From positions 2,464,001-2,528,000 of the forward strand of contig OZ252299.1 in assembly GCA_965250285.1 (NCBI GenBank): a DNA stretch of 64,000 nucleotides. Direction: 5' to 3'. Position numbers and translations under genes: made by a program. The notes beneath the pieces are model-generated. The model was not told where the DNA came from. It saw only the letters and a list, made by a program, of their open reading frames with translations, and made no database searches. This document shows, one piece after another, positions 24,359-28,635 of this stretch (position 1 is its first letter; every line of letters begins with the position of its first letter). Source of the DNA: Myxococcota bacterium. GTDB lineage: Bacteria > Myxococcota_A > UBA9160 > UBA4427.

Positions 24359-24979
24359 TCAGCTCTCGGCACCCACTCCGAGGGACGCGACGAAGATCCG
24401 CTGAAGGCGAGCCACTTCCGCACCCGACACGCTCGGCGTGTCGCTCTTGTCGAAGAAGAGACTCTGATCGAGGATCGCGATGACCGCGCCCAGCGCCTGC
24501 TGGACGTTGGTGACGTGACGGTCCTTGCGCTTGGCGGTGCGGGTCGTGTGCTCGGCGACGAGCTCGGCGATCGCGCGAACGAGCTTGACTGCCCGCTCGA
24601 CGAAGAGCGGGTCGTCGAGCGACTCGATCATCGTCGCGCGCAAGATGCCGCGGTGCTCGACATGGAACCGGACGAGCTCGGGCACCAACTGCTCGGCGAG
24701 CTCGGTCGGTGTCACCGCCTTGAACTCGGCTGTGTCGATGAAGTCGCGCATGTCGTCGACCGAGCTCTCTGCGAGCTCGTCGTGCAGGTAGTGGAGCAGC
24801 GCCCTCTTCCCCTTGAAGCGCGCATAGAACGAGCCGGCGGACGAATCCGCTGCGCGGACGATGTCCTGGACGGTGAGCTCACTGAACGTGTGCGTGCGAA
24901 GCAGCTCCTTCGTCGCCTTCGAGATGGCGTCGAGAGTGTCCTGGCTGCGGCGCTGACGAGGCGGGCTGAGGTCTTTCAT
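24359..24979 (-). CDS. TetR family regulator
   Basis: RQRRSQDT, LTVQDIVRAADSSAGSFYARFKGK. Confidence 0.92.
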   Translation of the reverse strand: MKDLSPPRQRRSQDTLDAISKATKELLRTHTFSELTVQDIVRAADSSAGSFYARFKGKRALLHYLHDELAESSVDDMRDFIDTAEFKAVTPTELAEQLVPELVRFHVEHRGILRATMIESLDDPLFVERAVKLVRAIAELVAEHTTRTAKRKDRHVTNVQQALGAVIAILDQSLFFDKSDTPSVSGAEVARLQRIFVASLGVGAES

Positions 24980-24993
24980 GGCATCCCAAACAA

Positions 24994-25009
24994 AATTAGT
25001 ATTCTAATT
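24994..25009. promoter_or_regulatory. Probable TetR operator
   Basis: AATTAG-TATT-CTAATT inverted repeat in the AT-rich divergent intergenic region. Confidence 0.55.
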
Positions 25010-25134
25010 CTATTTTCTGCTAGGGTGCGTGTCAAGGCGACGCACACGGCCGGGTCGCCGTCGCCACATCGAAAGAGAGCGGCGCCGAAAAGGTGGTGAG
25101 GCGGCGTCTGCCGGCCGACTCGAGGAGAAGCTCC

Positions 25135-25926
25135 GTGAACCTCATCGACCTGACGCGCAGGCTCGACGCCGCCGATGCCGAACGCATCCCGAAGGTCGCG
25201 CGGCCAGCGGCGACGGTGCTCGTGCCCGAGGTGATCGTGCGGAACGACCCCGCCGTCGAAGGCGCGGAGCAACTCTGCGCCATCTTCGGGTGCACGCGGG
25301 AAGACCTGCCGGACGGCGAGGGCTGGGGCGACGAGCGCATCCAGATCAACACGCATCTCGGCACACACGTCGACGCCCCCCTGCACTACGGCACGACCTG
25401 TGAGGGGGCGCCCTCGCGGACCATCGGCGACATTGGGCTCGAGGAGCTCTACTGCGACGGCATCGTGCTCGACGTCCGTGAGGACGCGAAGCCCGGCGAG
25501 GGCATCTCGGTCGAAGCGCTGAAGCGCGCCGTCCATCGGAGCGGCGCCGAGATCGGGCCGGGCACCGCCGCGCTCATTCGCACCGGACAGGAGCGCTACG
25601 ACCTCGACGATCCCGAGTTCTACTGGTACCCGGGGATGACCCGTGCGGGCACCCTCTTCCTGGCTGAGCTCGGCGCCAAGGTGTTGGGGACGGACGCCGT
25701 GGGCTGGGATCGCCCCCTCATGGAGATGCGCCGCGCCTTTCAAGAGTCTGGCGATGCGAGCGAGATCTGGGACGGTCACTTCGCCGGGCGCGACCGCGAG
25801 GTCTTCATCGTGCAGCAGCTCGCCAACCTCGCCTCGGTGCCGACTTCCGGCTTCAAGGTCGGGTTTTTCCCGCTCGCCCTCGCCGGCCTCAGCGCATCGC
25901 CCGCGCGGGTCGTCGCGTTCGTCTGA
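25135..25926 (+). CDS. Cyclase family metal hydrolase (kynurenine formamidase-like)
   Basis: LIDLT, HLGTHVDAPLH, ALIRTG, LGTDAVGWD, SASPARVVA; GTG 25135 after GAGGAG. Confidence 0.9.
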   Translation: MNLIDLTRRLDAADAERIPKVARPAATVLVPEVIVRNDPAVEGAEQLCAIFGCTREDLPDGEGWGDERIQINTHLGTHVDAPLHYGTTCEGAPSRTIGDIGLEELYCDGIVLDVREDAKPGEGISVEALKRAVHRSGAEIGPGTAALIRTGQERYDLDDPEFYWYPGMTRAGTLFLAELGAKVLGTDAVGWDRPLMEMRRAFQESGDASEIWDGHFAGRDREVFIVQQLANLASVPTSGFKVGFFPLALAGLSASPARVVAFV

Positions 25927-25980
25927 AAGCCCTTGCCCGCGGTCGGCGCCGGCAGACGGCGCCCCGCATCGAGGTGGGTC

Positions 25981-27129
25981 ATGCCCGAGGTCAGCGAGAA
26001 AATTCCCGAACGACTCCGGCCGCGCGTCGACGCGGCGGTTGCCTGGTTCAATGACACCGAGCAGTCGGCGGGCGCCGAGTTCGAGGTGACGGGCATCCTC
26101 GACGCAGACGCGGCCCTGGCTGGCTCGAACGAGCTGCGGCTGATCCTCTGCGGCGGCGACCGATGCGAGCAGCGCTCGTTCACGGTCACCGGCAACGACG
26201 GTGCGTGGGCGGTCGCGTTCGCCGAGAACGCACCGACCCCTCCAGAGGGGCAGCCCCAGGCCGAGCTCGACCCGCCGCCAGGCCCGCGACTCCGGTGGCT
26301 CGACGAAAAGCTCGGGCAGCACGCCTTCATCGTCCTGCTCTTCTACCGGGGCTTCTGGTGACCGCCCTGTCGCTCCGAGTTGCGGAGCTACGTTGAGCAA
26401 GGAGTCGTCGACCGCATCCGAAGCGCGGGCGGGGAGATCTACGCCATCTCGAGTGAACCGCAGCAGCTGGCCGACCGCGCCCATGACGACTGGGCGCTCG
26501 ACTTCGAGAACGTCGGCGACCCACATCAGGAAATCTCACGCACCTGCAGCGAACGCGGCTGGCTGACGCTCTACGCAAACCAGGGCAGCCTGGCGTTTCT
26601 GCAGCGGGGCGCGAGCTGGAAGATCGAGCATCCGAAGGGGTACTTTCAACCCGGGGTGCTAGCGGTGACACGCGAGGGACGCGTGCTGTACCGATGGCGC
26701 TCCGTGCCGTCGGCCGAGAACATGCAGGGAACGCTCGCGCGGCCCACCGCGAGGCACGCATGGGGTGCCATCGAGCGGGCGCTCGAAGCGGGAGGAGCGA
26801 TCGGCGACGCAGCGCTCGACGACGATCCCGAGGTCGACTCGAAGCCCGCACCGCGCCCCCTCTTCATTGCCGCCCTGTTGGCGAACGGATGGTTTCTTCG
26901 GGTCAAGTCGCTGGTGTACTCACCCGGCGCGAAGACGGGGGCCCAGCGCTTTCCGGCCCTGCTCGCGCGCTGGCTGCTCTTCTTCGCGTTCTGGGCCGTG
27001 GCGTTCGCGCTGCTTCCGATCCCGCCGGTCGCACTCGCCTTCGCGGGCTGGATCCTCTGGGTGCGACGAGACATCCGGCGAATGCTCGGTGGCGCGAGCG
27101 TGCAGAAGGAGCTGGTCCCGGAGCGCTGA
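25981..27129 (+). CDS. Predicted selenoprotein: AhpC/TSA (Prx-like) thioredoxin-fold protein with UxxC (Sec at TGA 26359-26361) and C-terminal TM anchor
   Basis: ORFs 25933-26361 and 26380-27129 are in frame; junction reads LLFYRGFW-TGA-PPCRSELRSY; followed by IYAISSE, GDP, QPGVLAVTREGRVLYRW; SECIS-like hairpin follows the UGA. Confidence 0.85.
26372..26388 (+). promoter_or_regulatory. Bacterial SECIS-like hairpin
   Basis: GCTCCG-AGTTG-CGGAGC, a 17-nt stem-loop beginning 10 nt after the in-frame UGA. Confidence 0.7.
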
Positions 27130-27150
27130 GCCGCGGGGCAGACGTCGAAC

Positions 27151-28635
27151 ATGCCGCCGGATCCGACTCGCCCCATGCCCGCCCCGCCCGAAGAAGATGC
27201 ATCCCGGAGCGACGCGCATCGGCTGCCGCTTCGCACCAAGACAGCCTTCGGTGTAGGCGGCATCGCAGAGGGTGCACTCAGCATCGCGTTCTCGACGTTC
27301 GCGATGCTCTTCTATCGCAATCAGCTCGATCTCTCGGGCACCCTGGCCGGCATCGCGCTCACGATCGCGCTCGTGTTCGATGCGATCTCCGATCCGCTGG
27401 TCGGCTCGGTCTCGGACCGGGTGCGGACGCGACTCGGACGGCGTCACCCCTTCCTGTTCATTGCACCGATCCCGCTCGGTGCCTGTTTCACGGCGATCTT
27501 CATGCCGCCGGAGGGTCTCGGGACCGCGGGGCTGTTTCTCTGGCTGACGGGCTTCTCGATCCTGATGCGGACGTTCCTGACCTTCTATCAGGTGCCGCAT
27601 CTCGCGCTCGGAGCCGAGCTGTCGCCGAACTATCTCGAGCGGACGCGCGTCATGAGCCACAACGCGATCTACCAGCTCGTGGGCGGCGCATCGACGTTCT
27701 TCCTCGGCTGGACGTGGTTCGGATCGGTCGAGGGGGGCGTCGCATCACGCAGCGCGTTCGGCGTGATGGCAGCCGGCGTCGCGATCGCTTCGGCGCTGGC
27801 GATCCTGGCATCGGCGTTCTTCACCCGAGACCGGATCCCGACCCTCTACGTTCCGCCCGTCGATCATCACGGCTTCTCGATGGCGTCGCTGACCGCCGAG
27901 ATCGCGGACTGCCTCAGGAACCGCAACTACGTCATGCTCCTCCTGGGGCTCGTCTGCCTCGGCGCGATGGCCGGCCTGCGTGAGAACCTCACGAGCTTCA
28001 TGAACCTGTTCTTCTGGGAGCTCCCCGAAGACAAGATTCGGTGGATGGCCACGGCATCACCGCCGAGCTTCATCCTGGCGTTCATCGTGACCACCCGACT
28101 GCACGCGCGGATCGACAAGCGCGAGACGATGCGGGGCGCCATCGTCATCGTGATGCTGGCGGGCTTCCTGCCGGTCTTGTTTCGCTTCGTCGGCCTCTTT
28201 CCCGAGAACGGCTCGTCCGCCCTCTTCCCGCTTCTGCTCGCAAGCGTCTTCTGCTTCTACACGGGCGTGGCCATCCTCACCATCACCGTCATGTCGGCGC
28301 TCGCCGATGTCGCGGACGAGCACGAGCTCAGAACGGGGCGCCGGCAGGAGGGCATCTTCTACGCCGCCCGCACGTTCTTCGGGAAGGTCACGACAGCGAT
28401 CGGATCGCTGCTCTCGGGGTTCGGGCTCGATGTCATCGGATTCTCGGCTCACTCCGTGCCCGGCGAGGTGGCAACCGGGGTGATCACCGGCCTCGGCGTG
28501 CTCGACGCGGTGGTGCCCGCCGTGCCCGCCGTGCTGGCGATCTTCTTCTACAGCGCATACGGGATCGACAGACGCACGCACGACGAGATCCGCGCAGCGC
28601 TCGACGCCCGCGCTTCGATTGCCTCCGAGGTGTGA
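27151..28635 (+). CDS. MFS/GPH family (MelB/UidB-like) cation symporter
   Basis: FDAISDPLVGSVSDRVRTRLGRRHPF, PHLALGAELS..Y.ER, ADVADEHELRTGRRQEGIF; about 12 TM. Confidence 0.92.
   Translation: MPPDPTRPMPAPPEEDASRSDAHRLPLRTKTAFGVGGIAEGALSIAFSTFAMLFYRNQLDLSGTLAGIALTIALVFDAISDPLVGSVSDRVRTRLGRRHPFLFIAPIPLGACFTAIFMPPEGLGTAGLFLWLTGFSILMRTFLTFYQVPHLALGAELSPNYLERTRVMSHNAIYQLVGGASTFFLGWTWFGSVEGGVASRSAFGVMAAGVAIASALAILASAFFTRDRIPTLYVPPVDHHGFSMASLTAEIADCLRNRNYVMLLLGLVCLGAMAGLRENLTSFMNLFFWELPEDKIRWMATASPPSFILAFIVTTRLHARIDKRETMRGAIVIVMLAGFLPVLFRFVGLFPENGSSALFPLLLASVFCFYTGVAILTITVMSALADVADEHELRTGRRQEGIFYAARTFFGKVTTAIGSLLSGFGLDVIGFSAHSVPGEVATGVITGLGVLDAVVPAVPAVLAIFFYSAYGIDRRTHDEIRAALDARASIASEV

Follow-up and report, generated by a model that had tools for sequence, protein, structure and literature searches.

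The window, by which we mean the whole stretch of 64,000 nucleotides that was analysed, carries a reverse-strand tetR gene followed by a cyclase, a candidate selenoprotein and a GPH transporter gene on the forward strand. Gene calling with table 11 splits the third of these, at 25981..27129, into two open reading frames of 126 and 249 residues. Starting at the ATG at 25981, the frame stays open past codon 127 until the TGA at 27127-27129. The initial annotation had placed codon 127, a TGA, within FYRGFW-[TGA]-PPC and had read the frame as uninterrupted up to 27129, and the sequence bears this out on both counts. The features discussed below are collected in Table 1.

Table 1. Features at the locus, in window coordinates
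Feature	Position	Strand	Remark
TetR-family regulator gene	24359..24979	-	divergent neighbour
Imperfect palindrome, putative TetR operator	24997..25012	.	overlaps tetR promoter match; putative function
Cyclase / kynurenine-formamidase-like gene (PF04199)	25093..25926	+	neighbour
Shine-Dalgarno-like GAGGTG	25971..25976	+	5' of ATG; read from sequence, putative function
Whole gene, predicted 382-aa UxxC redoxin selenoprotein	25981..27129	+	predicted read-through frame
N-terminal alpha+beta domain, ~residues 3-82	25987..26226	+	predicted cystatin-like fold; no Pfam family
Cys57 and Cys62 (LCGGDRC, residues 56-62)	26149..26166	+	flank predicted beta-hairpin turn
Thioredoxin-fold, peroxiredoxin-like domain, residues 98-273	26272..26799	+	Pfam AhpC-TSA, model comparison
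In-frame UGA, predicted Sec127 (codon 127)	26359..26361	+	inside FYRGFW-TGA-PPCRSEL
Cys130	26368..26370	+	second (Cys) residue of UPPC motif
Predicted bacterial SECIS element	26368..26392	+	upper stem-loop 26372-26388 and short lower stem
Pro224 of invariant QP motif	26650..26652	+	at peroxiredoxin catalytic Arg position
Predicted two-helix membrane hairpin, ~residues 325-367	26953..27081	+	hydropathy, model
GPH/MFS_2 transporter gene	27151..28635	+	neighbour

The in-frame TGA is a fixed property of the gene among its relatives. Of 401 genomes of the phylum that were searched, 27 carry the gene, all of them belonging to the class of the source genome; the best match in each of these 27 carriers contains the TGA, and the source genome itself holds three copies with a TGA in each. 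With 13 further loci drawn from genome and metagenome collections, 44 loci were fetched, one spanning only the C-terminal end and one being interrupted. The remaining 42, among which the locus in the window and four pairs of duplicates are counted, contain the motif, and the codon at the Sec site is TGA in every one, with TAA or TAG in none. The terminal stops of the same 42 frames comprise 20 TGA, 16 TAG and 4 TAA, with 2 cut off. Three full-length homologues (P0099, P0123 and P0125; 387-392 residues, uninterrupted) encode Cys at the Sec site, in the motif WCPPC; the source of one of them gives it as Saprospiraceae. In a tree of 35 sequences rooted at the midpoint, these Cys homologues group with two UGA forms in a five-member clade, a mixture that suggests a Sec-to-Cys change. 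The initial annotation had proposed a single 382-residue protein with Sec127 and Cys130, to be checked by searching for homologues with Cys or a conserved TGA at position 127; both kinds were found (42 of 42 loci with TGA, three homologues with Cys), and together with the hairpin described below they support the proposal. The contrary findings it had named did not appear: homologues encoded as two genes with TAA or TAG stops were not seen at any of these loci, and contigs from the four listed sequencing runs, all of one study with no RNA among them, which may be the source sample itself, contain no different letter across the stretch, such as would give TGC or TGT, in pieces of which no one record spans the Sec codon with 31 letters on either side.

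Could the UGA be a true stop, leaving two genes of 126 and ~245 residues as annotated, or a pseudogene? Database entries look at first sight as if it were: 119 of the 120 best matches span only the C-terminal part, and 29 of 150 representative matches end exactly at RGxW. Split entries of this kind are what table-11 gene calling would produce. A stop here would cut inside the active-site motif and the thioredoxin fold, the codon is never TAA or TAG in the 42 motif-containing loci, the Cys homologues run through uninterrupted, and the hairpin bears marks of selection at the RNA level. Nor is there a conserved restart codon 3' of the TGA, with 3 of 38 sequences having none at all in the first 15 codons. 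We consider this reading very improbable. A genome-wide reading of UGA as Trp or Gly, or a sequencing error, has a negligible probability and is refuted by the conservation of the TGA across genomes. Each full-length gene has one internal TGA only, always at the same position, with the Trp next to it encoded by TGG in 32 of 32 genes; TGA also serves as the terminal codon of both the selenoprotein gene and the cyclase gene; and the same TGA recurs in 27 genomes and in two paralogues of the source genome. On these comparisons, codon 127 is very likely recoded as selenocysteine, which would make the product a selenoprotein.

The two paralogues, L062 (G000:C1:4424066-4425151; 55% identity) and L063 (G000:C1:4543818-4544942; 51% identity), each have the TGA in frame, followed by a hairpin of the same geometry, and fall in clades different from that of the window copy. 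Three other loci (L051, L058 and L059) have additional stops or a shorter frame 3' of the UGA; either decay of the gene or faulty assembly may be behind this.

The hairpin lies downstream of the UGA, where the initial annotation had proposed a bacterial SECIS element. Its upper stem-loop, GCTCCG-AGTTG-CGGAGC at 26372-26388, has six base pairs and the loop AGUUG and begins 10 nt past the UGA, and a lower stem pairs 26368-26370 with 26390-26392. The bSECIS definition in the accessible part of PMC13188914 (Fig. 2) allows a loop of 3-9 nt with G in the first two loop positions, a stem of 4-16 bp, a UGA-to-loop distance of 16-37 nt and a minimum free energy of at most -7.5 kcal/mol; the window's hairpin, with its 5-nt loop AGUUG, 6-bp stem, spacing of 16 nt and -13 kcal/mol, lies within all of these bounds. 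Thermodynamically the element is unremarkable. The 42-nt fold reaches -13 kcal/mol with z -1.34, 19 of 200 shuffles being equally good, and longer folds do no better than shuffles (62 nt, z +0.45; 101 nt, z +0.46). A perfect 6-bp stem at this exact geometry follows 140 of 126,692 genomic TGA triplets (0.11%), and a loose genome scan for a UGA, a redox motif and a hairpin returned 168 matches, mostly noise, so the hairpin rule by itself is unspecific.

Stability alone is weak evidence for the hairpin, and the comparative data are strong evidence. In an alignment of 38 distinct sequences, from which duplicates had been dropped, 94.7% of the cells of a nine-pair stem are paired and 26 cells are altered on both sides, the two-sided changes being confined to 2 of the 9 pairs. 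None of 500 shuffles paired as highly, a control inflated by kinship among the sequences, and slid controls were 23-60% paired. Residue 132 may be Ser, Leu, Arg, Phe or Ala, and the opposite strand of the stem changes to match; the Ala132 form, found in 4 sequences, is the exception, with one stem pair broken. The codons tell the same story: the loop Leu (+7) is encoded by TTG or TTA in every one of the 32 genes, whereas these two codons make up 114 of the 1132 Leu codons at other places in the same genes, and in all 32 full-length genes Arg+4 is always CGC and Glu+6 always GAG. These compensatory changes and codon constraints indicate that the hairpin is under selection at the RNA level and, with the agreement with the bSECIS definition, support the SECIS proposal. 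The hairpin thereby offers a well-controlled natural bacterial SECIS, in which changes to Ser, Leu, Arg and Phe are offset across the stem. Two of the Cys homologues (P0123 and P0125) have Leu where every UGA form has Arg135, a position that belongs to the SECIS stem; relaxed constraint on the RNA in Cys forms would lead one to expect this.

The source genome also encodes the means of inserting selenocysteine. The initial annotation had suggested searching for selA, selB, selC and selD and had named their absence as a possible refutation; selA, selB, selD and a tRNA-Sec with UCA anticodon are all present, each above its curated cut-off. Both SelA and tRNA-Sec were matched in 28 of 29 carrier genomes, the remaining carrier (G403) having neither. 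Among 20 non-carrier relatives, SelA was found in 18 and tRNA-Sec in 19, so the co-occurrence discriminates little and shows compatibility only. Separately, nine more candidate selenoprotein sites were chosen by eye among the 168 loose matches, near positions 121328(+), 3706377(+), 3939510(+), 3873825(+), 2320738(-), 2346508(-), 1311786(-), 2261940(-) and 3020228(-) of G000:C1. We take three of these to be PrdB-like UxxC, four to be redoxin WUPxC and two to be UGSC sites, and two of the four WUPxC sites share an AGUUR loop; the genome looks selenoprotein-rich. The selD match (L010; G000:C1:5312234-5313154, reverse strand) lies in an open frame of 781 residues with no stop within the match, an arrangement that would agree with the Cys-type Ndh-SelD fusion in the accessible part of PMC2398784.

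The selenoprotein family itself has been described before. Among the selenoproteins of the GOS ocean metagenomes in the accessible part of PMC2398784, a family named 'Prx-like 1' (pfam00578, UxxC) has 225 sequences. The Dataset S1 of that paper, as far as accessible, holds 20 matches to RGFWUPPC and 7 to RGLWUPPC, and the displayed matches fall after the header 'Prx-like 1' and before 'Prx-like 2'. Several Dataset S1 sequences, compared by eye within the accessible portion, share the Cys motif of the N-terminal domain or a hydrophobic C-terminal end. The window protein has the same characteristics as Prx-like 1: the pfam00578 match, U127-P-P-C130 and, by eye, orthologues in the accessible portion of Dataset S1 (PMC2398784). 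Since these orthologues are written there with U, the Sec assignment for the family dates from 2008. Going by the accessible parts of these sources, Prx-like 1 is the same as the 'Prx-like thiol:disulfide oxidoreductase' (PF00578, UxxC) of Table 1 of PMC13188914, one of 119 prokaryotic selenoprotein families listed there and classed as predicted, and of PMC9312934; the same kind appears in PMC1088965. Judged by its sequence, the window protein is thus a member of a known, predicted selenoprotein family, and the recoding itself will not surprise selenoprotein specialists.

On the other hand, Prx-like 1 in the accessible part of PMC2398784 covers a wider range of proteins, short single-domain redoxins among them, unlike the three-part protein encoded here. 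The three-part architecture is absent from the fusion section and Figure S1 of that paper, and no description of it was found in the literature searched, most subscription papers falling outside that search. The initial annotation had not recognised the architecture; novelty at the level of the family does not hold in view of Dataset S1 (accessible portion, PMC2398784), and the architecture was indeed not found described. Of practical consequence is the annotation: the family, which 27 of the 401 sampled genomes carry, is hidden in databases as paired hypothetical proteins.

A structure model of the read-through protein (mean pLDDT 87.6, pTM 0.77; the query carried one surplus terminal residue from the final stop) resolves three parts, with residues 84-92 as a low-confidence linker. 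The initial annotation had described an extra N-terminal domain of ~110 residues carrying C-x4-C. A separate domain stands, at ~80 residues plus the linker; folded alone, as that annotation had suggested, it yields a distinct alpha+beta fold with one helix on a four-stranded sheet (pLDDT 84.3). LCGGDRC is present, and all 33 full-length and all 46 N-domain sequences have both Cys57 and Cys62; most members space the pair by x4, and some have four more residues between the two (x8). The best matches to the N-domain model are cystatin-fold chains (top Z 7.0, rmsd 2.4, 73 residues), and by the warning of the structure-comparison tool a Z below 8 may reflect a common arrangement. Foldseek gave no match at E<=0.001 for this domain, its weak rows including monellin and cystatins; Pfam found no family matching more than one of the 46 N-domain sequences, and the Pfam cystatin model had no match in the window protein and matched 1 of the 46 members at E 0.058. 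The inhibitory loop motif of cystatins is QxVxG. At the corresponding place the N-domain has F-x-V/A/L-T-G with the Gly invariant, lying within a predicted strand, and no Gln. The likeness to the cystatin/monellin fold is one of the model, at a middling Z of 7.0, and nothing found points to protease inhibition. Because they end and begin adjacent predicted strands, Cys57 and Cys62 would face each other. For a cytoplasmic Cys pair conserved without exception, a redox or metal-binding role is more probable than a structural one.

The central domain matches Pfam AhpC-TSA (pfam00578) at 33.9 bits against a cut-off of 26, and residues 98-273 of the model match peroxiredoxin- and thioredoxin-fold chains with a best Z of 13.4. 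As the initial annotation had it, this part is 'Prx-like'; the term holds for the fold and fails for catalysis, as the peroxiredoxin catalytic residues are absent. The motif PxxxT/SxxC(U) is missing, RGFWUPPC having Arg at the Pro position and Sec at that of Thr/Ser. Aligned to the BCP chains 2cx3 and 2ywn, the family profile likewise puts Arg at the peroxiredoxin Pro and Sec/Cys at Ser/Thr, and a Pro at the catalytic Arg of both chains. This Pro, Pro224 in the window protein, is present in 33 of 33 full-length sequences and corresponds to the cis-Pro of thioredoxins. Arg123, Arg131 and Arg254 are also invariant in the family. A sequence search of the PDB with the family profile (A2) gave a best E of 0.06.

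At its C-terminal end the protein has a hydrophobic hairpin (~residues 325-367), which supports the transmembrane helices of the initial annotation. The mean number of K+R around it is 5.0 before, 0.06 in the loop and 2.5 after, and the first 35 residues contain no signal-peptide-like hydrophobic stretch. On account of these basic flanks, the uncharged loop and the lack of a signal-peptide-like stretch, the soluble part is predicted to be cytoplasmic; going by hydropathy and charge, the protein is likely membrane-anchored with the redoxin on the cytoplasmic face.

Several known systems resemble parts of this design. The peroxiredoxins BCP/PrxQ, AhpE and AhpC share the predicted fold (Z 11.7-13.4 over ~135 residues) and the Pfam family, whereas the window protein has neither PxxxT/SxxC nor the catalytic Arg. 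In Sec-containing peroxiredoxins (TxxU) the Sec is peroxidatic, whereas here it is the first position of UxxC. SelL-related and PRXL2 proteins share a UxxC/CxxC motif on a Prx-like fold, human PGFS (prostamide synthase; chain 9us9) giving a Z of 11.6; the window protein differs by its extra N-domain and membrane hairpin. The best NCBIfam match is to the SelL-related model NF040769, with 21.4 bits against a cut-off of 120, and no NCBIfam model reached its cut-off for the window protein. TlpA, ResA and CcmG have a CxxC-type site, a Prx-like thioredoxin fold (Z 8.7-10.6) and a membrane tether. Their anchor is N-terminal and the protein faces outwards, whereas the window protein is anchored by a C-terminal hairpin and its soluble part is predicted to lie in the cytoplasm.

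Because it combines a peroxiredoxin-like fold with the lack of peroxiredoxin catalytic residues, the protein is likely a thioredoxin-type selenol-disulfide oxidoreductase, placed on the cytoplasmic face of the inner membrane and made with the hairpin as its likely SECIS; we give this reading a probability of roughly 0.6. The hairpin 3' of the UGA would act as SECIS for SelB to insert selenocysteine at residue 127. The target would be associated with the membrane, and its disulfide, or sulfur oxidised in a similar way, would be attacked by Sec127; Cys130 would resolve the Sec127-target bond to leave a selenenyl-sulfide, and a cellular reductant would regenerate the enzyme. The cystatin-like N-domain may serve as a module for binding partner or substrate, with Cys57/Cys62 possibly redox-active. 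Speaking against this reading, the accessible part of PMC3514251 notes that PRX_like2 proteins likewise have CXXC and no peroxiredoxin catalytic residues, and concludes that PRX_like proteins are not protein disulfide oxidoreductases.

Peroxidase activity is the rival to be weighed first. A membrane seleno-peroxidase acting on lipid or organic hydroperoxides, with Sec127 peroxidatic and Cys130 or Cys57/Cys62 resolving, would suit the membrane anchor and the best structural matches, which are true peroxidases (BCP/PrxQ and AhpE, with Prx6-type enzymes also among the top matches), and the invariant Arg123, Arg131 and Arg254 could stabilise the selenolate. Selenocysteine reacts well enough with peroxides even without the peroxiredoxin residues. 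What makes this reading rather unlikely is that PxxxT/SxxC and the catalytic Arg are absent, the site being a thioredoxin-type U/C-P-P-C with Pro at the Arg position, and that the Cys forms retain CxxC without any of the peroxiredoxin residues.

The closest relatives of the redoxin domain raise another alternative. Seven of them (P0217, P0254, P0219, P0235, P0240, P0253 and P0224) have it joined to a signalling domain of the RasGAP, RGS or DEP type and share the signature QP / W..P..N.GG..RP with the family, and no paper on such fusions appeared among the titles listed by a literature search. Cystatin-like folds are often binding modules, so that a redox sensor or switch that does not turn over, its N-domain binding a partner in a redox-dependent manner, might be imagined. 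Other near relatives of the domain are stand-alone or tandem redoxin domains, no conserved partner gene lies nearby, and Sec use usually marks catalytic sites (section 7 of PMC13188914, in its accessible part), all of which speak against a switch and leave it quite improbable. The selenol-disulfide oxidoreductase remains the best reading, ahead of both the seleno-peroxidase and the redox switch. A further, tentative and rather doubtful proposal goes beyond it: the proteins might form a distinct and so far undescribed subfamily of three-domain membrane selenoenzymes in which a cross-strand pair, Cys57-Cys62, on the cystatin-fold N-domain relays electrons to Sec127/Cys130, the catalytic domain being the bacterial counterpart of the RGS-, RasGAP- and DEP-fused redoxins. 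If true, the protein would be a complete redox chain in itself, with two centres, at the cytoplasmic membrane. The natural Cys homologues make the role of the N-domain and of the Cys pair testable in E. coli without the Sec machinery. Separately, one CxxC relative of the redoxin domain (P0187) is fused to a YHS domain; a member of alignment A4, most likely the same protein, matches NF041384, 'YHS domain-containing (seleno)protein', at 4e-28.

The surroundings of the gene say less about its role. The palindrome at 24997-25012 overlaps a strong sigma-70-like promoter match (11 of 12) for tetR, and similar palindromes adjoin the tetR orthologues in two other loci (L020 and L021); it is likely a TetR operator, and control of the cyclase-selenoprotein-GPH unit by TetR is plausible from the sequence. 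The TetR-controlled unit described initially is present as a gene order, and is not supported as a meaningful module. Among 43 other loci, most with flanks of only 1.5 kb and a few shortened, a cyclase is found in 4, a GPH transporter in 2 and a TetR orthologue in 3, and the complete unit in only 2 (L021 and L023), apparently one sequence. A Pfam survey of 63 neighbouring ORFs, chosen from rough gene calls, turned up a few hydrolases and TetRs and otherwise no partner seen repeatedly. A conserved operon was rejected on these grounds, the other neighbours varying widely; the selenoprotein gene behaves as a stand-alone unit, and its context yields no substrate. The block from tetR to the GPH transporter (24359-28635) has 64-76% protein identity to the L021/L023 record, which is titled Spirochaetaceae, and this may point to horizontal transfer or to a contig placed in the wrong bin.
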